Source: Flaccisagitta enflata
Taxonomy: Eukaryota
Direction: 5' to 3'
DNA length: 64,000 nucleotides
Assembly: GCA_965153355.1 (NCBI GenBank)
Contig: OZ231126.1
Location: forward strand, 20,088,001 to 20,152,000
Positions within the stretch are counted from its first letter, which is position 1, and every line of letters begins with the position of its first letter. The position numbers and the translations under genes are program-made. Positions 3,748 to 61,081 of the stretch are shown one piece after another. The notes beneath the pieces were generated by a model. The model did no database searches. It had not been told where the DNA came from and worked only from the letters and a program-made list of their open reading frames with translations.

Positions 3748-4662
3748 AGACATTTGGTGTGCGGGTCAACCAGCGACTGTTCAGTCTTATTGTTACAGTA
3801 TACGGAAGTTTTTTGCATTCTGTACATTATTTGGTTATGAATTGAAACTGCCTGTCAGCTCATCACTGGCCGCAAATTTTATTTCATTTACGCGACATAA
3901 TTCTTGCACCAGAGGCGCTATCTCCACAGCTATAAATGCCTTGAAGTGGCTACACAATTTTGTTCCCGGTATCAATCAGACTAACGATCCTTTGAATGAG
4001 AAAATATTAAAGATGGTGGTTGATAGTGCCCTAAGAAACTTACCAAAACGCGCAAATTTGAAAATGCCCTTGTCTCACGATTTCATAGTCAGAGTTTTAA
4101 CCAATTCAGAAAGTAAATCCTCTCTCGTTGACATAAGAGACAGTCTCATCCTGTCATTGTCTTACACCTTGCTTTTTCGCCACGACAAAATAGCCTTTAT
4201 TTCTTGCGCCCATTTATTTCATGTTGACGGAGGTTTGAAGATTTTTATTCCATCGTCCAAGACCGATGTTTACAAAAATGGCAACACAGCGTTGCTTGCT
4301 AAGAGCCGAGTTTTGGCTTTGCTTGAGAGGTATCTTGTCTGGCGCGTCTATCTGTGGGCGACCATCATTTTCTCTTTGGACCAATTATTAGGCAGGGAGG
4401 AAGAGACTGCATTGATAACTGCAAACTTTCGTATAATTCATACCGAAAAATTTTACGGTCAACTCTCATGTCCTACAATCTCAACCCCGATCTCTATGGG
4501 TTTCATAGTTGTCACAAAGGCGGAGCCACGACTCTCGCTAAGAGTGCAACCAATTACGAGTTGCTTAGCGCGGGCAGATGGAGAAGTGCTCGCTCGTTGT
4601 CACATTATGTGAAAATATCCGATAAGAGGAAATTGCAGTTCTCCCGTACACTCGCTGGCTAA
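3662..4662 (+). pseudogene. DIRS tyrosine recombinase, frameshifted near 4340
   Basis: RDSLILSLSYTLLFR and SSKTD in ORF 3662..4612. YGFHSCHKGGAT (H-x-x-R with R changed to H) and GRWRS..HY in ORF 4354..4662. Confidence 0.9.
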
Positions 4663-7525: not shown

Positions 7526-8170
7526 AAGTGTTACCAACTAATGGACCGACTGACAGTAAATCTTATTTGTGAGTTTCTAATCCTTATTTCCAAATAGGCG
7601 GTCTATGCAGTGGCAAAAAGATGGTGGAACTGCAGGACCTCGCTTTGTTTTTGGACTTGGTCGCTGTTCGTAGCTGTGGTCGTGGAATTTGGATGATCAA
7701 GCAAGCAGGCTGATATTCAAGCTGATATTCAGGCTGATATTCAGGCACAGGTTGGGCTCAGAAATTACACAGACGCACAGAGAGAGACCGAGATGGTGTA
7801 CGCTTTTTATTTTTTGTAAGAACGTCATTTTTTGGCCGAAGCCTTCAAAAGAGATAGAGTTAGATACTAATGAAATAACTATGATGTTCTTAATTTTGAG
7901 GCAATTTCAAGCCTTGATGTTCTTATAAATTAGGTTCTTATAAAAAAAAAGTGTAGTGTCGAAAATGGTGATGTGACATTCCACTTCTGGAAGGATATAT
8001 ATCTTTAACAATCTTTACTTTTGCTAAAAAAACGGAAGATCAATGAAATTTGAAAAGAAAAACACTAAAAGTCTTAGATTTCTTTTTTTTTACTCTCCCT
8101 GATGTTGATGATCTGATCAAAAATACTTTTGCTTTTGATACACCCGAGTGCATCATGTTACGCCACTATG

Positions 8171-11771: not shown

Positions 11772-14262
11772 ATGACAAATTTGCAGAGAATCGTATCTCT
11801 CTGGGATTGGATGTGTGTATTTTGCCTGTTACAGAGTAAGTAACTTTGAATATATAGCTATGTGCTCTCAGTTAGTGCTAAGCGGAATCCTGTGCGAGCG
11901 ATTACACCGAGTTGTGGAGCTTTTTGGTACATTACATTACATTACAGTTACATCCCACTTATACGGACCCAAAACAACGGAAATTAGCCTAGTGCGGAAA
12001 TCTTGGTCGCTTCATGTAATTTTAATGATAGCCATGGTGGAATCTCTCCTACAACAGATTAAATTTGTTGTCACTTGATCTTTTATTTTCTCTCTCTCTC
12101 TCCCGTAATGACTTTTTTCCCACGACGAGGGGCGCCTTTATCGTTAATGTCCTGTATTTAGTTGAGGACACGCATCCCTATAGGAGGCTTTGTCCGTCCG
12201 TCCGTTACACTGTAGTTGAAAAGTGCGTCCCTGATGGGTACTAATGAACAAGCATCTGTGATCCTTTGTTTTTAAGACTTTTTAAGCGGTTTTTTAAATT
12301 AGGGTTAGGGTTGGGTTTAGGGTTAGGGTAAGGGTTGGGGATAGTTTTAGGGTTAGGGTTAGGGACAGGTTTAGCTTTAGGGCTAAGGGTTGGCTGGGTT
12401 TTATGCATTACGGCCCGAAGCTATTCGAATTAAATTCGCTCTGGCGGAGGATTCGGAAAGTAAAACAAAATCGTTCGGGGACTCATTCATTTTGTCCTTA
12501 TGATGCTGCAGTTGAGGTTGTGAGTGTGTGTAAGTGTGTGTGTTTATACGCCCCGGCCCACCCGTTCGCAACAATATTGTAACCCCGGCTGAGCCGGATC
12601 ACCCATTCACCCCCCTCTGGATAGCCCCCCAAAGAAAAACCAAAAAACCCATTCTGGGGACCCCAAGATTTATCATCTAAGATGTCTTGGCTACACAAAA
12701 CAACATCAGACTAAATCATTTGAAGGCAAAATTTGGGAAAAAGTCACTTTTTATGCAAAAATCAAGCATTTTTTGCCATATTTGGCACTTTCATAGTTAA
12801 TACAGCTTCCAAAATTTTTTAAAAAATCTAAAAAGTGTAAGATTAGCTAATTTGTAACTAGTTTTACCTTTTCAAGCTAGTTTTGATGGATATTTCAAAG
12901 ATTAGAGCAAAAAAAATCACTTAAAACCAGAAAATCGAGTTTTTATCTGCATTCTTTTGCCTAAAATCATTCCAGCTACATCAATAAGCCTGTAAACTAT
13001 AAAAAGTGTGTGGGAACAGTTGAAACTCATATGGTTTTACCATTTTAAGTTAGTTTGAAGAAATATTTAATTTTTAAAAGCTAAAAAAAATGACTTAAAA
13101 ACAGTAAATTTAAGCTTTTTTTAGTATTTTTAAACTGAAATGATATCAATACTTCCAAACTATTTCATGCAAGTAAAATATATATATTACATACAGTAAA
13201 GTACATAAACATACATCTCACCATTACATATGACTTGGAGCAAGTAAAGGGAAAAAAGTTCATTCAGTCACTTCTTGATCAATTTTTCGCATCAAAATAT
13301 TTACTATGAACCAAAAAAATGTTTTCTCAAGCCTCATAGAATCATATAGCACACCCCCCCAAAAAATAGGCCCGCCGTTAGCCGTTTTATAGCAAAGGGA
13401 GCAGTATATACAATGAGGAACGCCAGGTAATTTTAGATTGTGTGTAAGAATTATTTTAAAAGACCGTTTTTCTGTCGCTGTCAGCGATACGATTTTGGGG
13501 ATTTGATCCATTTTTTCCCCGAAATGTGTTAATTGTGTTAATAGTTGCCTGAGATAATTTTCTCCACCTTAATATATGCAATTTTGTCACCTTACTAAAA
13601 AAAACCCTGAAGGAGGTCAAGTTACAAATGAAAATCATAAAATCGTAGTGTTCAACTTATTATTTTTGTTTACAATACTTCCCGTCAGAGTTAAGCTATG
13701 AAATTTTAAATGGTGTTAAGGAACATGCTAAACTACTTGCGTGTCAATTTTCATGATCCTAGGCAAATTTTAAGTATCGCTTTTTCTCCTTTGATTCCAA
13801 AATCCATGCTAAAAAGGAGTTTTTGAAAAAAAGATTTTTCATCTTGAAAATAACAAATCTGTAAAACAGTCAAACTTTTTGCATTTTTAAAAACATACGA
13901 CGCGAGATATACTAATTTTTAAGCGTCGTATGTTTTTGTTTTTTTCATTTTTGCGTTTTCTATGCAAATTTGTTATTTTCAGTGAGCATGAGTTGGAGTG
14001 ATTTTTTGCTCCTTCTAGAAAGCGAGCTGCTGGTGAAATGGTTTGTGTGGTGGAGGGATATCTGATGGATGTTGAGCCTCAATTTTCATAATCAAGCTGT
14101 GTGTTGTCAGCATAAATGCAAATCTATTATTTTTGCTTGTTCGAATACATGCTTGCTTGCTTGTTTCTGTGCTTACATGCTTGTAAACAACTGTAAGAAA
14201 TGACCAAAAAGGAAGCGAAAAAGAAAGAAAAAAACGGAGGTACAAAATAGTGAAAGAAATGG

Positions 14263-18923: not shown

Positions 18924-21900
18924 AGAAAGAAAGAAAAAAGAAAGAAAGAAGAAAGAAAGAAAAGAAAGAAAAAAGAAAGAAAGAAAAAAAAGAAAGAAAG
19001 ATAAAAAAACAACTTTTTTTCTGTTTTTATCTTGATTTTCTATCAAAAAAACTTTCATAAAACATATGATCTTTTTTTCAATTAGGTTCATCAGCTTAGA
19101 AAGATAAAAGCCTTTCTAGTTTATATCCACTTGAAAGGGAGTGACAGCAAGCCGGGGGGGGAGGAAGTGAAGGGAAGGGGGCTAATGGGGCCCCGCGGTG
19201 GCCCTTAAGCCTTAGGCCCCGCGGTAGCTTTATCCGGCTCAGAACCCCGGAATAGAGAGTATATCGTATGCATGTGTGATGGAAGCAACCAGTTAAAAGT
19301 GGCCAAATAAACAAATACTCCGGTGGTTAAACAGTGCGTCCAAGTCTTGCGTATATCGTCGACTGGAAAAAAGTCACAGACCTGGGATTTCTCTCAAAAA
19401 TATGCTCTTTTTTCTTAATTTGGCTGAAATCCGTCATTGTAGATTATGTACATGATTTCCTTTTTCAGGCGCAAGGTGCTGGGAGAGAAAATTCTCTGTA
19501 ACTTTATCCGGAAGATATTGCGAAAAAGGAACGCATTGCGGATTTGATAAAAATAAGTAAATGATAAATCGTCGCATTATTCTGTTTAGTCTGTATGGTT
19601 GTAAGTTTGATGGTTTTTTTTTCCTTTTGAAAAAGCAAAGCTTTTTGTACCAGGCACTCACATTTTATCATTCAGCAGGTGCACAAATCTATTTTGTAAT
19701 TATGTATTTTTTGTTCTTGTTAGATGCGTCCATCAGGAATTGATCTCTAAAAGAGGGTCTGTCCATCCGTCCGTTAGTTCATCTGTTCGCCCATCTTTCT
19801 CTCCAGATATTTCACGTGATTAGCACCAAATTCAATACACACAAAGACACAGTCCGGACGCATCGTTGCCTAGTCGGGATGATTTATGGTTTCAACTTTC
19901 AACTTTCATGTATTTAACCTTTCAGACAGTATCAGTGGTGTTGGGTTGATGAAGCAAATAACGATTGGGACTATTGTTGCTTTCCGGGATCCACAATCAG
20001 CCGTGATGGGAAAAAAGGGTAGAGATGGCATATGAAAAAAATTTGATATTTTGTCATTTTTCACTCATGCTAATGCCATTAGTTCCAAATGTTTAAAAAA
20101 AATTCCTTCGAATTTATTACTAGTATAAATATACTAAATAATTGCGTTTTTAATTAGTACACAAGTCAATGGGGGTCATAAAAGTGGCAGGATCATCTAG
20201 GATCCGCGCCGTTTGACTTTCCCACACAAACTGCTTTATTCATCTCATGTTTGCGGATTTTACCTTGATGCGCGCGCAATCGGAAATGAATCTCAGCTGA
20301 GAATCAGCCTCATTTCTAATTACTCAATTATACAAATTAGCTTATGACTAGTGTCACGCTAAGCCGACCGTGGACGGGATGAAATTCGTCAATTTCACAT
20401 GTTTGAAAATTGAACAAAACCATATGTCATCATGTAGCTCACCTATTCTTACATATGAATCCATACTTGGATTTTCTTAAGTAAGCTCATTTTTCATGCA
20501 AATTAGGCTTAAATAGATATTGTTGGCAGTTTTATTACTAGAAAATTTAGCTAAATACAATCACGAAATCAATATGACAGTGAAATTCTTATTGATAACG
20601 TTCAAGCAAACATGTGTGATCATGTTTCTGAAATTTTTTTGAATTTTTTTAGTTTTTTAAAAAAAATCTCTATAAGTAGCATTTCTGGCTGGGTGGGCTG
20701 TTGGAAGAAAAAAAAATTTCCCCATGCTCTTTTTTATGCCAGTGACGAGGAATCTTTAAAGGAAGCTTCATGCAAAATTTCAACCAGATCGGTCAATTAT
20801 TTTAGAAGTTATGCCATTTTTTCATTTTTTTATCTGGTGGGCTGGTTGGTCTGGTTGGACTGCTCAACATTCTCTAGGTCGCATAAGAATTTAGGCAAAG
20901 GAGTCTCTTGATCTAGATACCAACCATGCAAAATTTCATTGGGCTAACTCAAATAGTTCCTGAGATATGCAAATTTGAATTTTGTGAAATTTTACCAAAA
21001 TAAAACTTAAAAGCATCATGCATTTGTGTGAGAAGCGCTGTGTGGAAACAAAGAATTAACTACGAAGCTGGTCGGCAGCGTTACAATTCAATTCTTTTTT
21101 TTGTAGTGATCATCTTTGAAATTTCACTGTGACCAAACGATTTGGAGTTAAGTTGAAATTTTGGTGCAAGTACAGAATTGATTTTCTTCCCATCATGAAG
21201 ATGAATTTTTCGTCTTATGTTACTATGCCGTGGCATAGTATGAATCATAGTGTGACACAAGTGTGACAGCTACAACAAGGAGCACCTCTGAATTGTAACG
21301 CTCCAGGAAAATGCTTATTTCTTTTGAATAGAATGGAAAAATCCTTGAAAATCGGAGGAAAGGTCCTCCAACTAGTCCTTAATACAATGGAAAAGAAAAA
21401 AAAAATGCTTAATGTTTGAGTAAAGATAGGCCTACGAAAAAAACTTTCTACCTAACTCATTTTTAGAAAAAAATGAAAGAAAAATAAAGGGGAAGAGTGT
21501 CATAATTCAAATTCATTTTTTGTCATCTTACAGTTGAAATATTAAATTCAAACTTTCTACACATATCAATGGATTGATAGTGATTGCTTACAAGCTATTG
21601 GATGACCCCCATTGACATTTTTTGATTGGTTAAACTTGCGTTTTGCTTGCAGGGACAGAATCGGGACAGGCCCTAATAGACCCTTCTACCCCTGTTTTGG
21701 ACCCCATAGGGGCAGTCGGTGTGGCAAATTTTGGTTTAGTATGGCACACCAGATAGTTAGGTATGTCACCCAACCTTTGTGACCTTATGCAATTCAGCAG
21801 AAGAAGCGATGACACTTCTACAATGGCGGAGAGTCAGGGTTTCTCGCGCGCATGACGAAACTCGGAATCAGCCTTATGATCGATTTGTCATTCTATTATC

Positions 21901-23623
21901 ATTCCAAAGTTCTACTTTGTTAGATATTAAGTTTCATCATCCAGGGACCTTTCATGAAGTTATGAAAGGTGTTTTTAGTGATAATGGTAACACAAATGGA
22001 AATTCCTACACATTTTTCTTTCATTATGACAGAAACAACAATAGAAAAACTGACCCTTTGGTTTTTCTCAATTCTCCTAGCGGAAGCGAGTTGCTCTAGA
22101 GCTGTCCAAGAGTTGTCTGAGAGTTGTCTTTGAGTTATCTCAGAGTTGTCCTAGTGCTGTCCTAGTATTGTCCTAGACGTGCCCTAGACTTGTCCTTATT
22201 GTCCTAGAGTTGTTCTGAAGTTGCCTAAGAGTTGTCTAAGATGTCAACCATTTATTTTTTAAAGTGTCTTGGAATTGTTCTAAAGTTGTCTGAGAGTTGT
22301 CCTATGTTGTCCCAGATTTGTCCTAAAGATATCCTAGGCTTATCCTGGACTTGTCCCAATTGTCCTTCAGTTGTTTTAGGGTTGTTTGGTCGTTTCTTAA
22401 ATTGTCCTGGAGTTGCTTTGAAGGGGTCCTAGAATTACTATTGTTTTGAGATTGAAAGTTGTCCTAGAGTTTCTAAATTGTCCTAGTTGTTCAAATGTTG
22501 TCCTACAAACATCCTTGTTGTCGTAGAGTTGTCCTGGTGTCATTCCAGTATTGTCCTAATGTTGTCTTGAAGTCCTAGATTTGTTCTCAGGGTTGTCCTG
22601 GATTTGTCCTTGAGTTGTCGTCAGGTTGACTGGAGATATCTTGTGTTAGTTTACAACAACAAATTTGAAATGACTTTATTTAAAAGGCAGCTATTATTGT
22701 AGTTGCAGACACAAAACAATATGAGAGGCTATGTCCAACATTCTTTTGATCCATCTGCCTGTTAGTCTGTCCATAACACATGAGCAAACAAGTGACGCTG
22801 GGTCACAATATTTTTGTGGCTAGGTGGGCAGGGGCACCCAACCCCAATTCTCACCAAACCCACCTACAACATTCAAACATACACAAAAGTATCTAAACAC
22901 TCATTCTCACATTTTTCAACTTAATGACCAATGGACCGACAGATGGACAGATGGACAAAGCCTCTCATAAAGTTGCATATCTGCAACTAAAAAGGGGAAA
23001 ACGAAGTATTTGAGATGCTTTTTGGGTATCGTTGTTAGTTATGGAGGGAGCATGAACTGTGAATGTAGATTCAATGCCCCTGCCCACCCTTCCGCAACAA
23101 TTATTGTGACTACCCATCACTTGTTACTGGTTGCATATTGCAGACTCTCCTTACGGGCAACAACCTTTTCATGTCTTGTTACATTATGATGCCTGAAATA
23201 AAAGAAGTTTATAATTGAGGTTAATGAGCAGACATCCCTGGCAACATGCTTCATTAACACTTGCTTCAAAATGTTTTACATTTTTGGTAATTCATGAAGG
23301 AATAATTGATAAGGTTTATGTGAGAGAACTTGTCAATAACAAAATTTGGAGGTGGGTGGGGAGGTGGTTTAGAGTATGCTTAGGTAGACTTGGACTGTGT
23401 AGGTGGGTTGAGTGGGATAAAGAGGCGTTAGGTGATTTTTTCCCATCAGGGTGGGATTTGATGGACTGTGTAGGTGGGTTGAGTGGGATAAAGAGGCGTT
23501 AGGTGGTTTTTTCCCATCAGGGTGGGATTTGATGGACTGTGGGATCTTCATGCAGAATGAGACGGGAAATAATGAGTGGATATTACTATCATTCCTGCGG
23601 TGCTTGTAAACTTGAGAAAAAAA
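11772..23623 (+). CDS. Cys-rich extracellular protein, 5' part (signal-like N-terminus + module 1); exon 5 split by a transposon
   Basis: Phase-compatible exons 11772-11835, 11872-11926, 19335-19372, 19469-19556 and 19926-19991 + 23547-23623 give MTNLQRIVSLWDWMCVFCLLQISAK...SCGAFCASKSCVYRRLEKSARCWERKFSVTLSGRYCEKGTHCGFDKNKQYQWCWVDEANNDWDYCCFPGSSCRMRRE... The Cys pattern matches the exon at 53667. The donor at 19373 (GTCACA) is weak. Confidence 0.72.
12297..12400 (+). repeat. degenerate interstitial (TTAGGG)n tract
   Basis: Repeated TTAGGG and variant hexamers, lying within a HINE copy. Confidence 0.85.
12608..18795. mobile_element. Chapaev/CMC-like non-autonomous DNA transposon with ~450-bp TIRs
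   Basis: Termini CACCCCCCTCTGGATAGCC/GGCTATCCAGAGGGGGGTG. 4-bp TSD CATT at 12604-12607 and 18796-18799. Superfamily inferred from CAC ends plus 4-bp TSD only. Confidence 0.8.
16381..16596. mobile_element. small MITE
   Basis: Imperfect TIR GGCGTGTTTCTAGT/ACTAGAAACGCC with internal GAGTGA/GAGCGA repeats. Confidence 0.5.
22095..22640. repeat. degenerate ~11-bp tandem array (AGTTGTCCTAG)
   Basis: Recurrent GTTGTCCTAG variants. Confidence 0.75.
23400..23541. repeat. 71-bp tandem duplication of the transposon right end
   Basis: 23400-23470 and 23471-23541 differ at one position. Confidence 0.95.
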
Positions 23624-24607
23624 GTAAGAATGCAGGAGCGAAATCATCTTGCGAAGTCAGATACAGTAATTGAACTTGTCATCCAAGGATCGCACATGGT
23701 CAGCGATATAGTAATTGAAGAAAGACAACAAATCTTTTAATTTTGGGTAGCTGCCCCAAAGGGTTATGTCATGTTGAACACAGGGGCGAATTCCTCTATC
23801 TCAGCATGTATATGCGTACGTGCATTCCCCCCCCCCCCGGTCTTCTGAGGCCTGAAATCAGCCCTCTCAAGTCTGAAATCAGCCCTCTCAGGCTAGAAAT
23901 CAGCCCTCTCTAGTAATCAGCCTTCTCAAGCCTTAAATGTAAAACATTTCTTTGAGGCCTAAATTCATCCCTCTCAGACATGAGATCACCCCTCAGGCCT
24001 GATCACCATTCCCAAACCTCAAATAGCCCTCTCAAGCTAAAATTCTTTTATTTGCTTGGTTAAGGCGAGCTCCAGGCGTTCCCGGGGTCGAAAACGGCTG
24101 GAGGTCGCCTTGGCCAAGCGATTCCCTTTCAGATCAGAATTGGAAAAAATTGAATCGTGCTTCCCTTGGCATTGCAAAACACTGCAAAGCAAACTCAAAC
24201 AAAAAACAAGACGAAAGAAAAGCAGTGAAAGTAAACTCATTTGAAAAACTCGATCATAAGCAGAAGTGACGACGACGCGGTAAAGAGACAGTGACGCCAT
24301 CGACGCGGGGACGCCATCGACGCGGTGACGCCATCGACGCGGTGACGCCAACGACGCGGTGACGCCAACGACGCGGTGACGCCGACGACGCGGCGACGCC
24401 AACAACGCGGTGAAGCCAACGACGCGGTGGCGCCAACGACGCGGTGACGCCAACGACGCGACGACGCCAACGACGCGGTAACGCCAACAACGCGGTAACG
24501 CCAACAACGCAGTAACGCCAACGACGCGGTGCCGCTGACAAAGCAGCGACGCTGACAACGCGGTATCGCCGGTGACGCAGTGACGCTGAAAACAAGAGCC
24601 AACGGAG

Positions 24608-25585
24608 ATGCCAAATCGAGACAAGAAGCCACTATGTGGCCATTGCAAGGCGGACACAAAAAAACAACAGGCGACGGCGATACCATGCACTGTCTGTACC
24701 ACATGGTACCACATCAGTTGCTTGACGGGGATGTCAGACAAATTCGTCGACAACTGCGACAAAAGCAACAGACTGAAGGGAGATTCAAATTTCTTCTGTC
24801 CCAACTGTCGCAACTTCATTCCAAACATGAACGGAAGCATCCACGATCTCCTTGAGAAATTCATCGCGTTGGAAGCGCGGGTCAACGCCACGGAGGCGCG
24901 TGCTAATGCGGCAGAGGCGCGAGCTAACGCCGCAGAGCTCGAGCTGCAACAACTGAGAGCGGAGGTTGAAAGGATGACGAACGGAACGGATCAGGTGAAG
25001 GAGAAAATCGTGGTCATGGAGAAAGAGATAGAAAACGGGACGGAACAAGCAAAGAAGGAAGTGAAGGAGGAGATGACGGTGGAAATGCGGGCCAGAGAGG
25101 AAAAGGCTGCCAACATCGTCGTCTATGGAGCAAAAGAGTCTGGCAAGGAAAGCGCCGCCGAACGAGTCGACGATGACGTGCAGTTTGTCAAGGAATTGGC
25201 GGAAAAACTCGAAATCGAGATCGTCGGAGAGGTCGAGGCAAAATTCCGAGCCGGAAAGAAACCGGAAGGAGCGGAAGCGGGAAGACCAAGACCGCTCATC
25301 GTGAAAATCAGCGACGACCAAACATGAGAGAAAATTATACAGAAAGCCAGATTTCTTGGACGAAGTGACGACAACTGGAAAAACGTGTATGTGGGACTCG
25401 ACCTGACAAAAAAGGATAGAGAGGAAGCGAGGAGCAAAGAGGAAAAGATGAAGGAGGAAGCAAAGAAAAAAACGGAGGATGAATTAAAAAACGGATCGCG
25501 GAAGGGAGGAAGATACGTGGTAGCGGGAATGAGAGGAAGAGAACGATGGCTGGCATGGAGGGAGGATCGACAAAGTCAGAGATAA
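24608..25585 (+). pseudogene. LINE ORF1 with PHD finger and coiled coil; one in-frame stop at 25325
   Basis: CGHC...CTVCTTWYHISC...CPNC, then ANIVVYG and RPRPLIVKI. Continues in frame as VYVGLDLT. Confidence 0.85.
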
Positions 25586-27507
25586 AAATCGCATTTGCGA
25601 ACGTGCAGAGTGTAGGAAATAAGATGAATGAAATGCGCGCGATGGTGGCTATGATGAAACCAGAAATCATGGCAATAACGGAGACTTGGACACATGAAGG
25701 TATCGGAAACGAGGTGTTAAACATCGATGGCTATGAAATTGTGGCGCGGCATGATCGCAATGACACAGACAGAGGAAGAGGAGGAGGCATAGTAATATAT
25801 GCGAGGAACACTGTGAATATATCAGTATTAGAAAAAAACACTGATTTTAACCAGTGCGCATCGGTGGAAATGAAGCTCGGATGCGAGACGATGAAACTTC
25901 ATGTAATATACAGATCCCCCAACTCGAAAAAAACGAACGACGAAGATCTGTGCAGCTGGGTGAAAGGAATGAAAGGGGCAAATGTGTTGATCGGAGACTT
26001 GAACTTTCCAGACATCGATTGGCAGAATGGAAGAGCGGGGCCGAAAGGACGTGATTTTTATGATGCAACGGCGGAAGTATTTATGGATCAACACGTGAAA
26101 TTCCCAACACATGACAGCGGGAATGTATTGGATCTTGTCTTATGTAATCGGGAAGGCAAAATCCAGGAAGTCAAAGCAGAAGGAAGGATCGGCAAAAGCG
26201 ATCACGACATCATAACGTTCGAAATATGCGTCGGGGGAAGAAAAGAAATGAAAAAACGAGTAACATACAACTACCGGAAAGCAGATTTCGCAATGATGCG
26301 AAAATCACTATCGGAGACAAACTGGACACGTGAATGGGAAGGACGAGATGTCAACGGAATGTGGGACGACCTAAAAAAACGGGTAAAAGAGTTGATGACG
26401 GCAAACATACCGATGAAAACTATGAAGGAAAGGATGCAGCCCCCGTGGATGGACAAAGAAGTCCAGAAGGCGATTGAGAAGAAAAGGCAGGCATGGAAGC
26501 TATGGAAAGAAACGGGATCGAGAAAAAACAAAGAAGAATACAAGAAGAAAGAAACGGAAGTAAAGAAAAAGATACGAAATAAGAAGAATGCGCTGGAAAG
26601 AAGAGTAGCAAAATGCCGGAAAGACAATGCTAAAATGTACTACGCCTTCCTAAACAGGTCTCGGAAAACAAAAAGCAAAATCGGTCCTCTGACAAATGAA
26701 GACAAAGAAAAAATCACGGACCCGCAAGAACAAGCAGAGATGCTAAATAAGTATTTGGCGTCAGTCTTCACTGTAAGTGGGCAAGATCTACCAGAAGCAG
26801 AACAATATAACGGGGAAGCAAATTTAACTGACGTGGATATACGAGAAGAAATGGTAAAACAAACAATCGACGATTTGAAAGAACATTCAGCCTGTGGGCC
26901 GGATGGAATCACGACTCGCGTGATTAAAGAACTGCGAGATGAGTTGTCAAAACCGTTGACAATACTCTTCCGACATTCGATGGAGACAGGGAAAATCCCG
27001 GACGACTGGCGGGAAGCAAATGTGACGCCAATATATAAGTTGAAGGGAAAAAAATCCGAGCCCGGAAACTACCGACCAGTGTCTCTAACGAATGTTGTTT
27101 GCAAAATGATGGAAAGACTGGTGAAAGAAGAAGTGATGAAGCATGTCGAAACGAATAGGCTGCTATGCGACGCACAACATGGATTTAGAGCGAAAAGGTC
27201 TCCGCAGACAAACTTGATAGAGTTTATGAATGAGACAACAAAGTGGCTAGATGAAGGAGCGTCATTCGACATCTTATACCTAGATTTCTCCAAAGCCTTC
27301 GACAAGGTCTGTCATGAAAGATTGATGCTTAAATTGGAAACTATGGGTATCGCCGGAAAAGTGAAAGAATGGCTACGAGACTGGCTGAGAGGGAGGAAGC
27401 AGAGGGTGAGAGTCGAAGACGAACTGTCGGATTGGATAGAGGTGTTAAGTAGCGTCGTCCAAGGGTCGGTCCTTGGTGGCACCCTATTCGACATCTTCAT
27501 TGATGAC
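25546..27507 (+). pseudogene. LINE ORF2, AP endonuclease + RT N-terminal part, interrupted
   Basis: ITETW, GDLNFP, SDHDII, GNYRPVSLT, QHGF, YLDFSKAFDKV, QGSVLG. Confidence 0.95.
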
Positions 27508-29094
27508 CAACCCATTGCATACCGACTTTTGTAGTAACGCGATATGCGGTATTCACCATGGCAACGTAACGCCATCTTGGCGTCTATGTGGCGTTATCTA
27601 AGGCGTTATCAATTGTTGTTATTACTGTCATTTTTTGTCTATCTTTTTTATTTATCATGGAAATATTATGATCATTTGAAAAAAAAATTGAAGAAAAAAA
27701 TGTTTATATTCTATATTTACTATTAATAATGATTTTTTCTAATTTTTTTTTCATTTTTCATTTTTCATCATTTTTCATCTTTCATTTTTCATTTTTCATC
27801 TTTCATTTTTTTATCTTTCATTTTTCATCTTTCATATTTCATCTTTCATCTTTCATCCTTCATCCTTCATCCTTTATCCTCCATCTTTCATTTTTCGCTT
27901 TTCATTTTTTCACTTTTCACTTTTCACTTTTTATGTTTTACTATTTTTTTTTTACCATTCTTTTTTGCATTTTTTTCTTCATGTATTATATTACAATTTC
28001 TACTTTTAATCTTTGATTAAATTTTTCTTTTTTTTTCTCTCTTTTTACAATTGATATTTGATATTTGATAATTAAATTTTGATTTTATATCGTTTGATTT
28101 TCTATCCTTTTTCAGCCTTCAGCACTAATTTATTCTTATAATCAAGAATGTTTTGATAGAAAATAACTTATATATTGAAATGATCAGTTATTTTCACACA
28201 TGAGATTAAATAACGTCGACGCGGTATTAACACTGAAACGAGTCTCTCCATTTTGATCTCAGTCTCACCCTGTATCTCTAGTTCTCTGCCATAAATATAA
28301 ACACAGACAGACAGACATACAGACAGGCAGACAGACAGACAGACAGACAGATGGACAGACAGCGTAAAAAATGGCTAAATAGGCACGGGCAGTCAAGGAG
28401 ATGAAAGTACATTTCGCTCAGAAAATATTTTGCGCCAGTGATTCTTTCTCGATTTTTTTTTTTCTTTTTTTTTTTTTCTTTTTTTGTTTGGGAGGCATGA
28501 TTTCGTTTGAGTGTTATTTGGATTGAATAGCAGATTTTTTTTTTTTTTTTTTTTTCTAGAGTTCATGTTCCGATTTGAATTCGTTTTTTAAATTGGTTTG
28601 ATATGAAAGAAAGAAGAGAATGGAACATGGTTAATTCATGTAGTAGTATCAATAATTTTCTTTTTGATCAATGAATCTGTTCTATATACTACTGACAATG
28701 AGTGTCCCCAGAGTCGACGGGGTCCGTCAGGCTAATGTGCCGTATTTATTGAAATAGGATCTTTGTTAGTCTCCACCTTATGGTAATTCTAAAATCACGA
28801 GAATCGCCTAGGAATAATCTGCCGGATTTTTCTTTCTTAATTTCATATTTGTAAAAATTGATCAAATCCACTTTAGATTGCGTGGTCGTTTGTAAATCTG
28901 CCAGCAATAATCCGGCTCGTAACCGGCTGTCCCAATCATGTAACGCGATAAGAAGAGATACGTGTTACAACATAAACAAGGATATGGGTACTAGAAGCAA
29001 AATGCTGAATCTGCTGCTAAAATCTAAGGAGAGTAAAATGTTCTTCCGGATTGCCAGCAATAATCCGGTGCCGAGTTAAAACAAACGAGATCAT

Positions 29095-31082: not shown

Positions 31083-34000
31083 CTACCCAAACAGGTCCCA
31101 CCCTCTATACCCCACCCCATCCAAAATACCACCCCACTCAACCTCTCCTCCTTCCACCATCCTCCCCAACACGCCACCTATCAACACAGACGCCGCAAAA
31201 CACCCAGCCTTCTGTTGCCACATAGCCAGAATCCATTCCTCTTCCAACTGCTTCCTCAGCCTTCCCACAAACAGACTCCACACCCTTTCCACTGCCACTT
31301 CCACACTGCCGAGCACCAACCCCCGCATCGTGTGCACCGCCGACCGGAGCTCAAATCCCAACCTCCTCCAAAGTTGGTCCGCCGCTCTCTCCCCCAACGG
31401 CCCAAATGCCATCTCCCCCTCCACCACCTGCATGTCGACGACGCGGATGAGAGTCGGCTCCAACTTCCGCCACAGACGCCGAACCACCTCACACTCAATC
31501 ACCACATGCCACCTCTCCCTCGCCACTTCTCCGCACAACCTGCACTCCCCGTTACCATCCCTAACCCATGTGGCCATGTGTGGGGTCCAAAAATTCAACC
31601 CCACCTGTTTCCAAATATCGGAGCGAACACGCAAAGAACACGGCGTCGAATGTAGACGCCGCCATATATCGGGCCAATGCCCATCCAGAGACGCGCCGAG
31701 CGCCCGTTCCCACTTCTCCTCATAATGTCGAGAGCCACTGCGTGCCCTTCTACGGAAGGCCACGTAGAGCTCTCTGTAGGAGACCCTTGTGTGGTCCTTT
31801 CCCTCTTCGGATATATCGAAGAGGTAGTGAGGCTCACTCAAGGGCATTTCGGGAGCAATACCACGAAGGCGGGCCACCTCGTCCCACTTGCCACGCCCAC
31901 CCAAACCCAGACCGGACAACATCCACAACGAACGAACAGACGTCACATCCCGAAGAACAAGCCAAGGGACAGAGCGCAGGGGGTGCCCATCAGCACCCAC
32001 TATCTGCACATTATGGAACAACCGACTACTTGCACGCGTACCCCTCTCCGTTACCACCTTTGGTCCTAACTCCCCCCAGGCCTTTAGTGCTTCTCTATAG
32101 AAAGCACTGCCGACCTTTTCCATCACCCTCGCCTCTGCGCCTAACACCTCCAGGCCTCTCCATCCCCATCTCTGGTCGCCTATCATTTCCGCCGCCAAAA
32201 CTCGGGGGAAAGACCCCCGCGGCATTGCCAAAAGGCGACATAACCACGCGACCCTCTGTGCCTTGACCTTATCCTTAACATCAACAAGCTGCGCACCACC
32301 ATACTTGTACGCAGCCTTTAATCGGTCACGGCACACCTCTTGTCTTCCTCTAAACACCCACTCCGCAACCGCCTTCTCCACATTCCCACAGCCACCACCC
32401 AGCATATTGCAAGGTGGGGACCATATCTCAGTCCTATACCACAAGCGCTAATATAGCAACACATTTGCAACCATCACCTTGCCCAGCTCAGATAATGGGC
32501 GCGACTTCCACGCCTTGAGCTTAGCGTGAATGGATGCAAATTGTGCTGTGAAATTGTCACCGGCGCAGGTGGTTTCTCCTATCCACACACCCAGCACCCT
32601 CACCCTGTTGTTTCTCCAAGCAAAACCAAACGGCCTGTCTGTCCTTGCCCTCCAGGGACCTATCCACAAGCCCTCCGTTTTAACTACATTCAACCTCCCC
32701 CCCGAGGCGGCCTCATAGAGGCGCACCTCGCTCATGAACTGCCGCATCGACGCATCAGACGTTAAAAACGCCTGAGTGTCGTCGGCGTACTGGCCGATTT
32801 TCTTCTCTACCCCAGAAACCCTTACCCCTCTTATCCGGGGATTCCCCCTTATCTGACTGGCCAGTACTTCCGCCACCATCACATATATGTGACTGGACGG
32901 AGGGTCACCCTGACGGGTGCCCCTATCTAGCCTTATCTCATCGCTGAAAAACCCATTTATCAAAACCCTGGAGTGCACCCCATTATAGAACACCCTTATC
33001 CACCTCAAAAACCCCGGCCCGTACCCCATCCCACCCATTACCTTAAGCATAAAGCCGTGGTCTACTCGGTCAAAACACTTCTCCTGGTCAAGACAGAGTA
33101 TAGCAGCCGGTGTTTCAGTGTTATCACAATAATCTACAACATCTTGAAGGATATGCAGATTAGTTGTGATACGACGACCTGGAACACACGTCTGATCCTC
33201 ATGAATGAGCTCCGGCATGACCTTCGACATTCTCCGTGCGCTCACCCTACTGATGATCTTGTAGTCGGCGCCAACTAAGGTGACAGGTCGGTAGTTGCCA
33301 ACCTCTAGTTTGTCACCCTTTTTATATAGCAACCGAATCACACCACCACGCATACTGGCAGGCAAGCGACCACTCTCGTATGCGCACTCAGCTACACCCT
33401 TGAAGTCGCTGGAAAGGTCGGCCCAAAAGAACTTCCAGAATTCGGCAGGGAAGCCGTCCTCTCCCGGCGCCTTACCGTTCTGGAGTGTCCTAAGTGCCTC
33501 CCCCAGCTCCTCCACAGTCATCTCTCCCTCACACATTTCGCGGGACTCGCGTGACAGAGTCTTTGTCAGTCGGTCCAGTAACTGGTCCTGCACGTCCGGG
33601 TCTGTCCCTTCGCTTGTAAACAGGTCCGTATAAAATCTGTACGCCACGTCCAACACCCCTTCTGACCCATATTGCACCATCCCCTGCCTGTCTCTCAAGG
33701 CGTAAATCAGGTTCCTGCCTAACCTGCTTTTTTCCATCTTACTGATATACGCCACTCCTGGTTCCCTTTCTGCAAAATTGGGCAACCTTGCCCTTACCCT
33801 GTGCCCCTCCGCCTTCCGTTCCTCCTCCTCCTTCAACAGTCCCACCACTCTTTCCAACTCACTCCTCTCTCTGTCACCCGCCCAACCATACACCACATCC
33901 CATTCCAACCTCTTCCTCTCTTCCTCCAACCTTCGCACATACTCCCTCCTCGCTCCTGCTTTCTCCCTACTGTATTCCACAGTCACAAGACGCCACACCT

Positions 34001-34886
34001 CTTTCGCCCAGTCCCACCACTCTCCATCGTTACCAAAACCCCCCTTCCCTTCTCTGACCTCTCTTATTTTACCCCTTAGAAGTTCAGTGTAAGACCTGTC
34101 TCTCAGCAGGCTCACATTGAACTTCCAATAGCCTACCCCTTGTCTGACCTGGTCCTCTATCTCAACCTCAAAGACCTTGTGCCCGCTACTGACCCCATCT
34201 GCCCAAAAGTAGCGGCACCCTTTCACCCTTCCAGCCGTCACTCCGTCCAAGTACATCCTGTCAATCCTACTCCTGTGTAGCCCCTGCTCGTATGAAAAAA
34301 CAACGTCCGTGTTTCCGTCCACTCTAAAAGCGTCACATAGACCAGTCCCCTCAAGCACACTGGCCATATGACGGCCGCAAGCAGCCTCCCACGTGCTTAC
34401 AGCGCCCCCACACCTATCCAAGCCATCCACCACAAAATTCCAGTCACCCATCATTACCACCGGCATACTGTCATCCACGGCCACCTCCAGGCTCCGAATG
34501 AGCCCCGGAGTACCAGCCGCCCCTGGGTAGCCGTAGACTACCACAAGGTCCATTTCCCACAAAAACACCACACTCCTCACTCTTACCACCATCAGCCTGC
34601 CAGCACTCAACACCCTTTCATTCACGACCTCAAACTCACGCGAAATGACCAAGCAGACACCCGCATACGTATCCCCCTCCGCGTGTCCTGAGTGCAAGAC
34701 ATGGTGAGATAACCGCATGTCTTGCATTGGTTGGCACAACTGCTCGATATCCGAGCAGTGTGTCTCTTGTAGGGCAACGGCCCCAATATCAGACCCCCAC
34801 TGTATATAAGAGAGGACCCAAGAACCCTTGTATCGGGCTCTTGGTCCCCCTCCCAATCCATTGGGGTTATACGTCAGGAAACGCAT
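31083..34886 (-). pseudogene. Tx1-like ORF2 (APE-RT-CCHC) with one in-frame stop at 32448-32450
   Basis: LQETH, GDWN, SRIDR, GKAPGEDGFPAEFW, GNYRPVTL, LDQEKCFDRVDH, RQGDPPS, QYADD, CRLC-x8-H-x4-C. The two listed ORFs are in the same frame. Confidence 0.93.
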
Positions 34887-36126
34887 AATCGGAGGAAAAA
34901 AGAAACACCAGCCGCGCCAACACTACATACCAGGGCCAAAAAAGGCAAAAAACGCGCTCACCACCATTGCTTGCCAAGGCCAACAATTACTCCCATACTA
35001 CCCTTATAGGCAGATGAGAGCACTTATCAACCCCCCCAAGCAACCATGGTAAGCACAAGATAACCAACCAACCTAACCATTGCTACCAAGCCATGACCAG
35101 AGGCGACTCTAGCCTACCCTAGGGCCGGCCAGAATCGACTATAGACACGGCAAAGCAACAATTTTTAGGAAGGGGGGCTAAAAATACACAAAAAAGGCAG
35201 AAAAAAACAAAAACGGAGCCAAAACCGAAAAAGGCCAAAACCACCAACTGTTCCCCCCCCTACTGCCATCCAATGCCAATGGACGATTTCGGCCCACTCT
35301 AAGATAGGCCAAGATCGACCAAGGTCAAAGTAGGGCAGCAATGAGTGGGAATAGAAGGCAGCACAAAAAGGCAGAAAGGCAAAAAAGGGCGCCCCAACAG
35401 TGGCGAGAGAGAAAACAAAGGCCCCCCACACTAACCAAGCATGGCAGGACCCCCTCCCGCTATTGTCCGAGCGGGAAACCCGCGCCAAACCTAAACCAAA
35501 CCAACCGGATTATTAGTGGCGATTCTGATGGCCCAAAACAGCTGTTTGGGTGGCCAGCCAATCAGGTCTCTCAGTCCACATCTACCTAACCAGCGGCCAA
35601 CCAATCAGAGTAAAGTGACCATCCATCTCGCCAGTAATAATCCGCCCGGAGGTTATATAAAGCAAAACGGAACCAGAAAAGCAAACGCGCGAGGCGTAGC
35701 AGCCAAACCAGGCGAGGAAGAAAACGACGAAAAAAGACGAAAAAGGAAAAGGAGAAAAAAAACAGAAAAAGACAAAACGAAAAAGAAGCCGGAACAAAGA
35801 CGAGAAAGGCAACCAAGCAAGCAACCACGGGGAAGAAAACCCAACTCAATTCAAAGGTGAATTGAATCAAGCCCTCTTCCCAAGCAACAACGACGACGAC
35901 AAAAGGCCAAGATGGGGGAAGTATCGACCAAGCAAGCAAGCGACCAAGCGAGCAACCAAGTGACCAAGCTGACCAACCAAGCCAGCCGCCAATCAGGCGA
36001 CCTGGCTCTCAAGTGAGCGGGCGATCAACCTAGCAAGCGAAACGACCAAGCAAGCAGGCCTTCCCCCTACCCATCAACCAAGCAACCAACCGGGCGACCA
36101 AGCGAACGACAACAGGAGGGGGGGGC

Positions 36127-38703
36127 CTAAAGTCCTCCCTTTCCTCCCTTTTGCCCACCTCTGGACTGTGCCCTGCTCTGGCGCTGCTGCTGTTGGCCTG
36201 GCTGTTTTAGCAAAGCAACTAATTCACGCTGGCTAATGCTCGGCACCTCTTTAGCGTCCCTACTGACACTCAAATTCCTCTTCGCGTTACCATTCATCTC
36301 ACCATCGGAGTCAAGAGTTTCATCGCCTCTCGCTCTCTTCAAAGAGGCACTGCGGTGCCTCGCGTCCTTGTTTTGGAGTCGAGGGATGGCCATTTTTGGA
36401 GCCGTCGATCCGGAGTAGGCCGACATGGCTGCGCTGCCAAGGGCCTGCAGTCTCGCCGAGAGATGCTGGAAGGAAGGTTGGGGGGCTGCTGCTGCTGCGC
36501 CCAGCAACTCGGAGGGTGCTGCTGCTGCTGCAGCCGCCGCCGCGACTGGTGCTGGTGTCACGATGACCGCGACATGGCCGGATGAGAGCGACGGTGAGGC
36601 GCCAAGAGCGCCGTCCGCGATGCTGTGGTTGATGCTGATGCTGTTGTTGTTGCTGTTGAGGCTGGAGACGCACGAAATCATCTCCGGTGTCAGGGCGAAT
36701 GAGCCACTTTCGACGGAAGATGGGGGATCGCCGCCTCCTTCCTTTCCGTGTGGGGGGGTCGAAGTCGACGTCGCCACAAAGCTCTGGGAGAGGTTGAGGA
36801 GAGCCGCCTCTGCCATGGCCACACTTTTTGCCACTGCCGCCTCCTCCACTTCAGCTCTAATCGCTGCCGCCAATTCCTCCTCCTCCTTCTCAGAAGCCGT
36901 CAGCTTCTCCAAGGTGGCTGCTGCTCTTGCTGCCTCGTCCTCCTCCTCCTCCACCTGGCTGCCCCAACTGACGTTGCCTTGGAGTGTGTCGTCGCCTTCT
37001 TCAACTGGGACCACCACCTCCGTTGCTTCCGCCACTCTCTTCTTCTTCTTCTTCCTCCTCCTCTGTTCCTTTGGAGCCTGTGAGGATTCAACTATATCCT
37101 CCTCCTCCTCCTCCTCCACGTCCCCTCCTCCTTCTGCAAGACTGGAGAGGGCATCCTGCGTCGATGGCGCTGCTGATGCTGCTGTTGATGAACACGGGGC
37201 TGCCGCTAATGGAGACGATGATTGGCCGGCCACTGGTGGTTGCTGCACTGCTGCTGCTGTCGAAGTCGTTGGTGATGGCGCCGGTGCAAGTAGCGGTGGC
37301 GCTGTTGCTGCTGCAGATGATGATGATGAAGTTGGAGGGAGTGTTGCTGCTGCTGTTGACGAAGTTAATGTAGCAGATGTGGAAGATGCCGAGGCCGTTA
37401 CCACTGCTGCATATGATGGCAACGTCGCCATCGGCGTCGTCGCCACATCTCCCGATGGCGAAGCATAAGGCGGGCATGCAAACTCCTCATGCAATCGGGT
37501 GCATCGCATGCATCCGACCTTGTGATGGCGGTCCGAGCACCCGTCGTACGGATTATCGGCCACCTGGAAAGAAACTATCGCGTCCTTCCCCATCTTATCA
37601 TTAACATCAGTTCTCACCTTCCCCATCACTTTTCGGGTTCCACTGGCGGAGTAGTGGACCCCATCCCTGTCGAGATCATCAAGAGCGAAGACGAGCGTTT
37701 CGAGGTTGATGAAGGTGCAGCCTATCTTTGATGCCGCTCGCTTCGCCTCCGCACGGGTGAAGCGACGGTAGTCGTACTCCGGGCCGTGGCAGATTTCGCC
37801 GACAAATGGGTCCACAATGAAGATGGAGCGATCGCCGTTGTTAAGGGGTGACAGCACCTTACAGAGCTCCTCGAATTGGTGCTCCACCATCTCCTTTGCG
37901 TCGTCAAAATCACGGCCGTTGTTATTACGGCCCACGGACACGATTACAATTTCGCCATGAGGAAGGATGGATGAGTCATTGTTTATGTGGTTCGCCACAT
38001 GCCCAATTTTGGCGCCGGGGATGGCGTCGACACGCATCGAAGCGTCATCCTTCAGCATTCTCATGATGCTATCGCCGAAGAAGAGGATCCTGGGCGGGGT
38101 TGCTGTTGCCGATGCCACCGCCCCATTCCTCCGTCTGCGACTGCCGCCTCCTCCGTTGCTACGCTGCTGCCAACGTGGGCACTGCCCATCCTTGTGCGTG
38201 TCGTCGCACTGCCTGCAATCGAAGGGTTGCTGCCTATACACAATCTTATAGGTGTACTCCACCCCTTCATCCGACGTCCACTTGTTGAAGCGAGGAAGGT
38301 GGCGACTTCCAATCTCCACCAATGCCTCCCTTACACCATTGTAGATGCCAGTCGCCTCCTCATGCTCCTTGCTGACCGTTGGTTGCACGATGACGCATCC
38401 ATAATCTCGCATAAAGGCGTCGAAGTATTCGTCCCCTACCATCACCATTTCTCCTTCATACGTTTGAAAAAACTTCACCCATGTAGCAGGCTTGTTCGAC
38501 TTTCTCCTCCTCATCGGGATCGTCGTCTTCGTCCTTCCTTTCTCCACCTTCAGCTCAAACTTCTCCAACACCGCCGCCGCTTCCTTCGTCCTCGCTGAGA
38601 CGTTAAAAACGCCGCGTTTCCTGAAGGCGTCGGTGATAACGACGTTGTTGAGGATCGTCGATCCATGCTGATCTTTGATCTGCTCCCTGAACGCCTTCGC
38701 CAC
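36127..38703 (-). CDS. LINE ORF1: zinc knuckle, SGNH/GDSL esterase, second knuckle, low-complexity tail
   Basis: CRQCDDTHKDGQC; FFGDSIMR...IPGAKI...VGRNN...DGVHYS; CMRCTRLHEEFAC. Start codon unclear. Confidence 0.82.
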   Translation of the reverse strand: MAKAFREQIKDQHGSTILNNVVITDAFRKRGVFNVSARTKEAAAVLEKFELKVEKGRTKTTIPMRRRKSNKPATWVKFFQTYEGEMVMVGDEYFDAFMRDYGCVIVQPTVSKEHEEATGIYNGVREALVEIGSRHLPRFNKWTSDEGVEYTYKIVYRQQPFDCRQCDDTHKDGQCPRWQQRSNGGGGSRRRRNGAVASATATPPRILFFGDSIMRMLKDDASMRVDAIPGAKIGHVANHINNDSSILPHGEIVIVSVGRNNNGRDFDDAKEMVEHQFEELCKVLSPLNNGDRSIFIVDPFVGEICHGPEYDYRRFTRAEAKRAASKIGCTFINLETLVFALDDLDRDGVHYSASGTRKVMGKVRTDVNDKMGKDAIVSFQVADNPYDGCSDRHHKVGCMRCTRLHEEFACPPYASPSGDVATTPMATLPSYAAVVTASASSTSATLTSSTAAATLPPTSSSSSAAATAPPLLAPAPSPTTSTAAAVQQPPVAGQSSSPLAAAPCSSTAASAAPSTQDALSSLAEGGGDVEEEEEEDIVESSQAPKEQRRRKKKKKRVAEATEVVVPVEEGDDTLQGNVSWGSQVEEEEDEAARAAATLEKLTASEKEEEELAAAIRAEVEEAAVAKSVAMAEAALLNLSQSFVATSTSTPPHGKEGGGDPPSSVESGSFALTPEMISCVSSLNSNNNSISINHSIADGALGASPSLSSGHVAVIVTPAPVAAAAAAAAAPSELLGAAAAAPQPSFQHLSARLQALGSAAMSAYSGSTAPKMAIPRLQNKDARHRSASLKRARGDETLDSDGEMNGNAKRNLSVSRDAKEVPSISQRELVALLKQPGQQQQRQSRAQSRGGQKGGKGGL

Positions 38704-39566
38704 CCACGCCTAACCACTGACGATCCAGGTCTTACAAACTAGATACGATCTACTGCACGATCAAAGTGATTCTCGTCTCCAATAGATACGAGAAGAGATA
38801 GCTATAAATTGATTATTAGATATAACTAGATATCGATTTCCGGTACGATTCATTATTTTTTTCATAGTTACATATTATCAATAAATGTTTACCATTTCCT
38901 AAATAAGGTGTTGTGTGTGTGTGTGTTTGTGTGTGTGCGCTTTTGTGCGTGTGTGTGTGTGTGTTCCTTTTAGAAGTGCTCTTAGGTCGCTTATCATAGT
39001 AAATCCATATTGAACATACAGTAGAGTCGCTTTTCTTGTATTTGTTATCAATTTGGAGAAATCTATTTTTGAAATCGTTTTTATACCAATGGAAAACGAT
39101 CTTAGATAAAAATTGGAAAAATTTCGAATTTGAGACAGGATACTTTACATTTGTAACTGTTTAAAAGAAAACCAGTCGGTATGAAACTGTTTTTTAGTCG
39201 CGTGCTACGCAACTTTACACCCCGCTTTGTTGGTCCGTGGGTCCGTCGGTTCGTCCGTCCGTCACACTTTACTTTTTCGGCGTTTCTGGGGTTTTTGACT
39301 ATACCGCTCCTGCCCAAATGCTCCACTGACCTCAAATATGGCGGCACGCGACTGGGGTACCCGTGTATCCGGCCTTGTTTTAATTTCAGACATGAATAAT
39401 TCGTCCATGGCATGAATGAATATCGAGTGAAAGACATTGCAAACGTAAGAAAGCATGAGCATGAGCCAGTCATTCAACCTCTTTTGTCTGCTCTTTTACT
39501 GTTACCAATTTTGGGTGATTGCCCACCCAAATCTGACTGAAAGAATCGAACCTCTCTCTCTGTCTC

Positions 39567-56358: not shown

Positions 56359-57397
56359 TTAGAGCTGGTAGTCTTGGCCTTCAGGTGCAGGAGGAAGGCA
56401 ACAGCAGCCAACGCCTGTCAAATCTTGCTCCAAGTAAACATGTCGCCATTCAGAGTACCACCTATACAAAGAAGTATGGCGCGGGATTAAATCTCAAGTA
56501 TCATGTGTAGAAATGGATGAGATGGTGCGTGATTCAAACTCAAGCATTATGAGTAGAATTGGATGAGAAGTCCTTCAATTCAAGCCTCAAGAAACAAGGC
56601 CAAGTAGGCCAATAAGGTGCGACGTGTGGATCGTCGAACGAATGCGTTACCCGACCGACCGACAGACCAACGGACACAGCCAATTATAGAGGTGCTCTGT
56701 CGCACCTAAAGATCCATTTGAAAAATTATGAAAGGATGTCTGTACTGCGGTTGTCGTTCGTTGTCATTGTCGTTATCGTTGTCGTCATCGTTGATTTCAT
56801 TACAGTCATTATTGTTGTTTCAACGAGAAAGTGTACTTAAAAACACTGAATAGAATCGCTATTTGCTTATGAGTAATAAGTCGTGACAATTGGTCTGTCG
56901 CCCTGAAGCCCCCCACCGTCCTTATCGACGTTCTAGTGATTTGACCTGTTGAAGAAGAAATCATAGACTTCGACTATTGGAATGGTGGTGCCTTCGTAAG
57001 TGTTAAATCCACCCACGTAGAAGACCCGACCCTCGTGTTCGGCAGATGCCATATCATGACGAGGGACTGCCGAGAGTATGTATCGAGCCATGTGCGTTAT
57101 GTGATTGCCTTCAAATGAGTGCCTGTCTGTGTGTTCTGGCGTTCGTATTACAGCTTGTGAGAGTTTGCCTTTTGTTCGTTAAAGCTTGTGTGATTGCGCG
57201 ATAGCGTGTTAACAAATATCACAAGGATGTGCATGGGTGAGTGTAAACTGTGTAGCCACATCCACGCGTCTTTTCTTTAACTTCCTGTCTAAATTTCTTT
57301 CTTATCTTCTTTCTCTCTTGCTTGCTTGCTTGCTTGCTTGCTTTCTTGCTTGCTTGCTTTCTCCTTTCTTTCTTGCTTGCTTGCTTGCTTGCTTTCT

Positions 57398-60391: not shown

Positions 60392-61037
60392 CGTCTTACT
60401 TGGACGGTAGATATCCTCCTGCAACAACTAGAAGTGGAAACAGTTCATCCTCGAAGGTTTCGGCGATCGAATCTGGGATGATCCTCGAAGGGGCGTAAGG
60501 AAACACGTGCATGTCACCTTCGCGAAACACTTTGGGAATCTTGGAGTTCTCATCTTGCCCAGCGCCTTCAGACCCTTCAATGGATTGAAAATGTGTGAAT
60601 GTGTGTTATTGTTAATGTTCCTTCTTTCTTTGTGTGTCAGTCTGTCTGTCTTTATGTTTGTCTGGCTGTATACCTGTCTTACTGTCTGTCTGTTTGTGGC
60701 TTGGCAGCAATCATCGAGTCTTCCATTTGAAATATAACTGCGTTTTAGACAGTTTGTCGCCATTGGTTAAATGACGACGCTGAAACCTTGTGGCGCTGCT
60801 GTCGCCGGATTTTCCTCTTGAGGCGCCACTTCCGCTACGGTCGCCGGCGTTTGTTCGAAAGCGCGTTTGGTCTCTTTCGTTTCGTGGAACTCGTTGAGCA
60901 GTTCGGCGAATCTCATCTCCAAAGCGTCCAACCTTTTGTCCGCTTCCGGATATCCCGTGTTGGCGGTCGGCTTGGCAACAAGAAAAGAGTCACATCGGTA
61001 ATATGAAAAGCGGGCATTCAATTCATCATACACTGAC

Positions 61038-61081
<44 letters not shown>

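Follow-up and report, generated by a model that had tools for sequence, protein, structure and literature searches.

What does it mean when a DNA element whose unequal ends resemble recombination signal sequences (RSS) is found inside a coding exon of a cell-surface protein gene? This question is raised by a stretch of 64,000 nucleotides from Flaccisagitta enflata (contig OZ231126.1, positions 20,088,001 to 20,152,000; hereafter, the window), in which one exon is split by such an element. The initial annotation of this DNA offered two readings: a natural analogue of the ancestral gene in the model that traces V(D)J loci to a receptor gene split by a transposon (see the review PMC8355894), or a plain knockout allele. 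The evidence favours the latter. In all likelihood, the insertion at this locus is of the non-autonomous Transib type, took place recently, is probably segregating, and makes a null allele beside working unfilled alleles.

The RSS-like element does split a coding exon, and the coordinates given for it proved to be exact: it spans 19992–23541 and is flanked on both sides by GGATC (19987–19991 and 23542–23546), which forms a perfect target-site duplication. The GGATC target is preceded by CCG, and the duplication is GC-rich and 5 bp long, as in Transib transposons. The ends are also of the Transib kind. The heptamers CACAATC and CACAGTC start with CAC and are close to CACAATG, and the nonamer-like A-rich boxes, GAAAAAAGG at the short-spacer end and GAAAAAACC at the long-spacer end, have A at positions 5 and 6 and a spacer near 12 or 23. 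Depending on the nonamer register, the spacers are 11/21 or 12/22 nt, which is not a clean 12/23 pair, and the difference between them is 10 bp. A block common to both ends, TGATGGGAAAAAA, adjoins the A-rich box. The heptamer-plus-TGATGGGAAAAAA motif is present three times in the window, always at the ends of the element, versus none in 100 shuffles. Among the 145 pairs of CACA[AG]T and A[CT]TGTG situated 0.2–15 kb apart in the window, the flanking 5 bp are identical for the element's own pair alone, where chance would give about 0.2 such pairs. Neither end has a further copy in the window at up to six mismatches in 27. An assembly artefact was considered and rejected given the perfect duplication and ends and the occurrence of pieces of the element in three other sequencing runs.

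The 10-bp spacer asymmetry and the nonamer-like box are shared with the RAGL-A elements of Ptychodera flava, whose heptamer is described as being followed, in addition, by a conserved A-rich TR2 block (Martin et al. 2023, PMC10629977); such a block is also reported for protostome RAGL ends (PMC7204232). In the window element, however, positions 8–10 are AGC and CAT, the two ends being unlike each other here, and no A-rich block follows the heptamer. The element is therefore classed as Transib-type, and a Transib rather than a RAGL enzyme is the presumable agent of its insertion. None of the 24 stop-free frames of at least 45 amino acids within the element matches a transposase or RAG1 family in Pfam, and no convergent RAG1L–RAG2L genes are found among them, which a non-autonomous derivative would lack too.

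When the element is deleted together with one copy of the duplication (19992–23546), a 143-nt open exon with AG/GT borders is restored between 19926 and 23623, just as had been annotated, and the frame stays open through to the exon at 53667. The parallel drawn earlier between the WDYCC sequence at the interruption and the second module is correct as well; the module in question runs from 53840 onwards and is completed by the exon at 54711. With the insert in place, translation ends at the predicted TAG (20020–20022). The filled allele would then give a peptide stopping short of both the second module and the membrane anchor, and because of this it should be a null allele or, through cryptic splicing, a damaged one. 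In the part of the gene seen, the insertion is the sole lesion.

Seven exons with GT–AG borders and matching phases compose an open frame of 261 amino acids, which is 47% identical to residues 114–328 of the homologue P0001 (E 2e-74) and keeps 21 of 21 cysteines in comparison with P0001 and P0005. The 64-residue exon at 53669, searched with HMMER against 1.84 billion representatives, retrieved P0001 (328 amino acids, E 6.5e-18); a word-indexed homologue search with the same exon gave no match. There were two weaker HMMER matches, P0003, in which short WDYC repeats are numerous, and P0002, which was rejected as a translated repeat. Two further homologue searches, one of them with P0001, returned the clusters of P0001 and P0005 alone, with no names; the second of these clusters has four proteins (P0005–P0008). 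P0001 and P0005–P0008 are unnamed proteins of about 330 amino acids that have a hydrophobic stretch at the N-terminus, three Cys-rich W-x-x-CC modules, and an anchor at the C-terminus. They are complete on intron-free contigs of 1.2–1.4 kb with intact open reading frames (ORFs), and for this reason the contigs are probably transcripts. P0001 aligns without gaps across the insertion point.

A homologue-profile search of the window in six frames finds each exon once (19469, 19926, 23542, 53667, and 54711); the match at 23542 is weak (E 1.1), yet it is the best after the four strong ones. The same search detected in the window neither the 5′ third of the gene (homologue residues 1–113) nor any alternative 5′ or 3′ segments. 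For the final two exons, the prediction relies on hydrophobicity and reading frame. The earlier assignment to a cell-surface protein agrees with a hydrophobic 19-mer in the exon 55153–55217 (Kyte–Doolittle mean 2.29) and with the N- and C-terminal hydrophobic segments of the homologues. Pfam has no family for the host exons, immunoglobulin (Ig) domains included, and P0001 gives a Syndecan-type membrane-anchor match below the cut-off only. Fibronectin type II-like clusters in the Atlas were found at 0.79–0.87, which is under the reliable range, a PDB sequence match at E 0.74 was rejected, and the AlphaFold model of the host protein, with a predicted local distance difference test (pLDDT) score of 37, was too poor for a fold search. 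Judging from its sequence, the host gene encodes a type I membrane protein and not an Ig-family receptor.

The insertion point falls in the CC-x5-C loop, a spacing that the two modules keep unchanged in each of the six sequences compared, and this constant length indicates that the site is not a tolerant loop. The insertion could nevertheless be tolerated if cryptic splice sites in or near the element yielded an in-frame mRNA; the allele would then be weak rather than null. Two of the eight splicing combinations tried do stay in frame, namely from the donor at 20019 to the acceptor at 23555 (18 nt gained) and from the upstream exon to the same acceptor (75 nt lost). However, both routes cost at least one invariant cysteine, the acceptor at 23555 has a poor pyrimidine tract, the other six combinations stop or shift the frame, and no reads fell on the exons in the 6% of one RNA run that was covered, so that a tolerated insertion appears very unlikely.

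More can be learned from four of 24 listed sequencing runs, the other 20 giving no evidence either way: X1 and X2 (DNA, the same organism label), X3 (a marine metagenome), and X24 (polyA RNA). Contigs from the host intron and flanks in X1 and X2 (depth 75–99) have 5–17 differences from the window in 124–375 letters (3–8%) and thus represent other haplotypes. Element-specific contigs differ from the window copy by about 1–3% in X1 and X2 (depth 113–678) and by 0.6–3% in X3 (depth 7–15); in the three runs taken together, there are 1–8 differences in 163–271 letters at about 1–8 times the flank depth. A second locus with its own duplication was not seen in the contigs of the three DNA runs. By these comparisons, the element family looks young and of few copies, being less diverged than the host-intron alleles.

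Further, a marine metagenome contig appears, indirectly, to derive from an unfilled allele. Record 24 of X3 (187 nt, minus strand, depth 7.9) aligns with its first 136 letters to 23541–23676 with two differences, while its last 51 letters lie to the left of 23541 and do not continue into the element (the orientation was taken from record 9 of X2, which extends beyond the stretch at its start). G stands at both 19986 and 23541, with different letters next to it, so that with an unfilled site the alignment should stop at precisely 23541. As to RNA, none of the 773 window reads of X24 fell in the four exon-bearing bins, and all of them were on repeats (12.2 million reads, or 6% of the run, were covered); a rough estimate, based on our own assumptions, puts the expression of the host gene in this sample under about 2 transcripts per million.

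Thus, the favoured explanation takes the following form. A transposase encoded elsewhere would have inserted the element recently, in the germ line, at a GC-rich spot of the exon, duplicating GGATC; unfilled alleles would keep the gene intact in the population, and the RSS-like unequal ends would be the normal transposase-binding ends of the element's family and not a host adaptation. The recent age, the segregating state, and the loss of function are inferred from the features described above. Several points weigh against this explanation. The depth of contigs does not equal copy number, and divergence is underestimated where repeat contigs are collapsed. The empty site, which the annotation had asked to look for, is indicated by a single contig, whose 51 unaligned letters were not seen, and the direct joint from 19991 to 23547 is not among the joints listed (15 of 86); X1 and X2 give no reading of the insertion state at the site. 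The junction-read check proposed at the same time gave neither a transcript of either allele nor an excision product in the 6% of X24 that was read, so the function of the unfilled allele in the species is putative. Finally, no partner transposase was found in metagenome and viral pattern scans: both metagenome matches (2/2) and all viral ones (5/5) to a partner element with the same ends were chance matches without further likeness, and these collections are poor in animal DNA.

If an active Transib or RAGL transposase is present, the allele might instead be unstable, in the manner of maize Ds, with occasional excision in soma or germ line that is incidental and not programmed; the footprints would be varied, and a few of them would restore the frame. 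In favour of such an allele, both CAC ends are intact, the duplication is perfect, and the family looks young. The chemistry invoked by the annotation, hairpin formation followed by imprecise repair, is also fair: Transib is described as cleaving by a nick followed by a hairpin (PMC4840297), host DNA is reported to be rejoined with small deletions after ProtoRAG action (PMC8289069), and in maize it is given as standard that Ac, acting in trans, excises Ds in the soma (PMC3260210). On the other hand, no transposase has been found, and no excision joint is among those listed. In a toy model with uniform trimming, 21 of 64 simulated footprints are in frame and 6 restore the loop length, for which a net loss of 5 nt on excision is required. 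Rare somatic excision lies below the reach of the four runs, and contigs drop rare variants. An unstable allele is regarded as unlikely.

A further proposal is that the insertion has been fixed or selected and that its excision, regulated and somatic, puts the exon of a recognition protein together and makes the junction diverse. The anatomy does match the first step of the model: unequal RSS-like ends lie in deletional orientation in an ectodomain exon of a membrane protein, as postulated in PMC8355894, the other exons are undamaged, and the duplicated long-spacer end provides two possible cutting sites. A functional analogue, however, has no positive support. An unfilled allele apparently exists in X3, exon reads are absent from the part of X24 covered, and no transposase was identified. 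The window contains no extra 5′ or 3′ segments that could form an array, and the protein has neither an Ig nor any other Pfam domain. The cysteine loop at the site is of fixed length, relatives have intact ORFs on short intron-free contigs, and 3.5 kb of repeat cargo still lies between the ends. Fixation with programmed excision is, accordingly, extremely improbable. It is also highly improbable that an active Transib or RAGL enzyme with a one-turn/two-turn end rule excises the element in the soma of carriers, giving varied receptor-exon junctions, with the doubled long end serving as a choice of cut sites. An ordinary null insertion allele is thus the preferred reading; the features on which it is based are collected in Table 1.

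Table 1. Coordinates of the element, of the interrupted gene, and of repeats inside the element (positions in the window)
Feature	Position	Strand	Remarks
Transib-type non-autonomous DNA transposon	19992–23541	.	3,550 bp, 37.6% GC; CAC...GTG ends and 5-bp duplication
Short-spacer end	19992–20018	+	heptamer CACAATC, 11 nt, GAAAAAAGG; 12 nt if counted to A run
Long-spacer end	23505–23541	-	heptamer CACAGTC, 21 nt, GAAAAAACC; 22 nt if counted to A run
71-bp tandem duplication, 70/71 identical	23391–23541	-	creates second, internal long-spacer end starting at 23470
High-copy repeat block inside element	20350–21900 (approximate limits)	.	summed contig depth 1e5–1e6 vs about 90 at flanks, X1/X2
Degenerate 11-bp tandem repeat, element-specific (low depth)	22088–22640	.	
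Dispersed repeat, two copies in opposite orientation	22786–23126	.	blastn to window 7228, 47940, 59166 and others
Upstream coding exon, start of interrupted Cys-rich module	19469–19556	+	AG/GT borders; homologue-profile match E 1e-4
5′ part of interrupted exon	19926–19991	+	ends in first GGATC copy; homologue-profile match E 5e-11
In-frame TAG ending translation of filled allele	20020–20022	+	
Second GGATC copy (target-site duplication)	23542–23546	+	
3′ part of interrupted exon	23547–23623	+	ends at GTAAG donor; aligns to homologue residues 164–186
Next coding exon, most of second WDYCC module, after 30-kb intron	53667–53861	+	profile match E 1e-22; phase fits
Coding exon for remainder of second module and for Pro-rich stalk	54711–54881	+	profile match E 6e-17
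Predicted transmembrane exon	55153–55217	+	hydrophobic 19-mer aligned with homologues' anchor; borders inferred
Predicted final coding exon (cytoplasmic tail, with stop)	56385–56510	+	open frame and AG border only; no homologue support

The interior of the element has a complex composition. The block at 20350–21900 probably consists of nested or captured elements. Beside the 71-bp tandem duplication, a third partial heptamer is present at about 23392–23399, and the joints within 23391–23541 differ in other copies (X1, X2, and X3), so that this subterminal region is variable within the family. In X1, the segment 23444–23541 has a bin mean of 1.9 million in summed contig depth, the flanks being at about 90; of the contigs of this run, 6,993 fit two places, and one joint leads from 23471 back to 23444. 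The long-spacer end may be common to a satellite or to some very abundant short family, though the window has no other copy.

As for the surroundings, the 30-kb intron (23624–53666) harbours at least two retrotransposons of the long interspersed nuclear element (LINE) type: a PHD-finger ORF1 and an endonuclease–reverse transcriptase ORF are located at 24590–27534 on the plus strand, and ORFs resembling a second LINE-type element at 31083–38709 on the minus strand. Upstream of the interrupted exon, a degenerate TTAGGG array of about 15 units is found at 12299–12391. A stretch after AG that resembles a signal-peptide exon (7599–7760) has an in-frame TGA near 7694 and a wrong end phase; it shows only a faint match to the homologue N-terminus and is at best a putative part of the host gene. 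At 1399–4609, an ORF resembling reverse transcriptase, RNase H, and Dam methylase is followed by one of 331 amino acids, a layout that we take to be that of a DIRS-type retrotransposon. Short open stretches with splice-like borders on the minus strand at 60460–63050 suggest exons of a neighbouring opposite-strand gene.

Unequal ends are familiar from Transib elements, and insertions into exons occur commonly. In its present state the locus is an ordinary insertion allele, but a tidy example of how a preference for GC-rich targets brings Transib-type elements with one-turn/two-turn ends into ectodomain exons, which is the raw event assumed by the split-receptor model. In the open-access literature, no report of a natural invertebrate insertion of such kind was found, nor were papers on Hztransib excision. 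Should somatic excision and an active partner transposase be demonstrated, carriers would make it possible to test directly whether a split gene can be rescued and diversified by imprecise excision, and this in an animal without RAG domestication.

The Transib elements are among the closest known systems. Five-bp duplications, a GC-rich target preference, and a CACAATG-like heptamer with an A-rich nonamer are described for them, and RSS12/RSS23-like 5′ and 3′ ends are attributed to Transib5, Transib2_AG, and the non-autonomous TransibN1_AG, N2_AG, and N3_AG (Kapitonov & Jurka 2005, PMC1131882). The window element resembles all five in the CAC heptamer, the A-rich box, the short 5′ and long 3′ spacers, and the GC-rich 5-bp duplication, and it lacks coding capacity like the three non-autonomous ones. 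It differs in its spacers of 11/21 (or 12/22) nt, those of the other elements being known by description, in its length of 3.55 kb with repeat cargo, in the tandem doubling of its long-spacer end, and in its position within a coding exon. With RAGL-A and RAGL-B/ProtoRAG, as they are described in PMC10629977, PMC7204232, and PMC8289069, it has in common the CAC heptamer and the GC-rich 5-bp duplication, and with RAGL-A also spacers that differ by 10 bp and a nonamer-like box rich in AT (PMC10629977). Unlike in RAGL elements, the block shared by the two ends adjoins the nonamer, TR2 is absent at the heptamer, and there are no RAG1L or RAG2L genes.

The likeness to the split-receptor model consists in unequal RSS-like ends splitting the ectodomain exon of a membrane protein; here, however, the exon is not an Ig V exon, segment arrays are lacking, and the junction falls in a cysteine loop of fixed length. 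Moreover, the model requires fixation, excision, and expression, whereas the window locus is an insertion known from sequence. Footprints left by Ds in exons of the maize waxy gene give rise to protein variants. Like Ds, the window element is non-autonomous, resides in a gene, and could potentially be excised imprecisely by a transposase acting in trans, but Ds belongs to the hAT elements and makes an 8-bp duplication, whereas the duplication here is of 5 bp and excision is putative.

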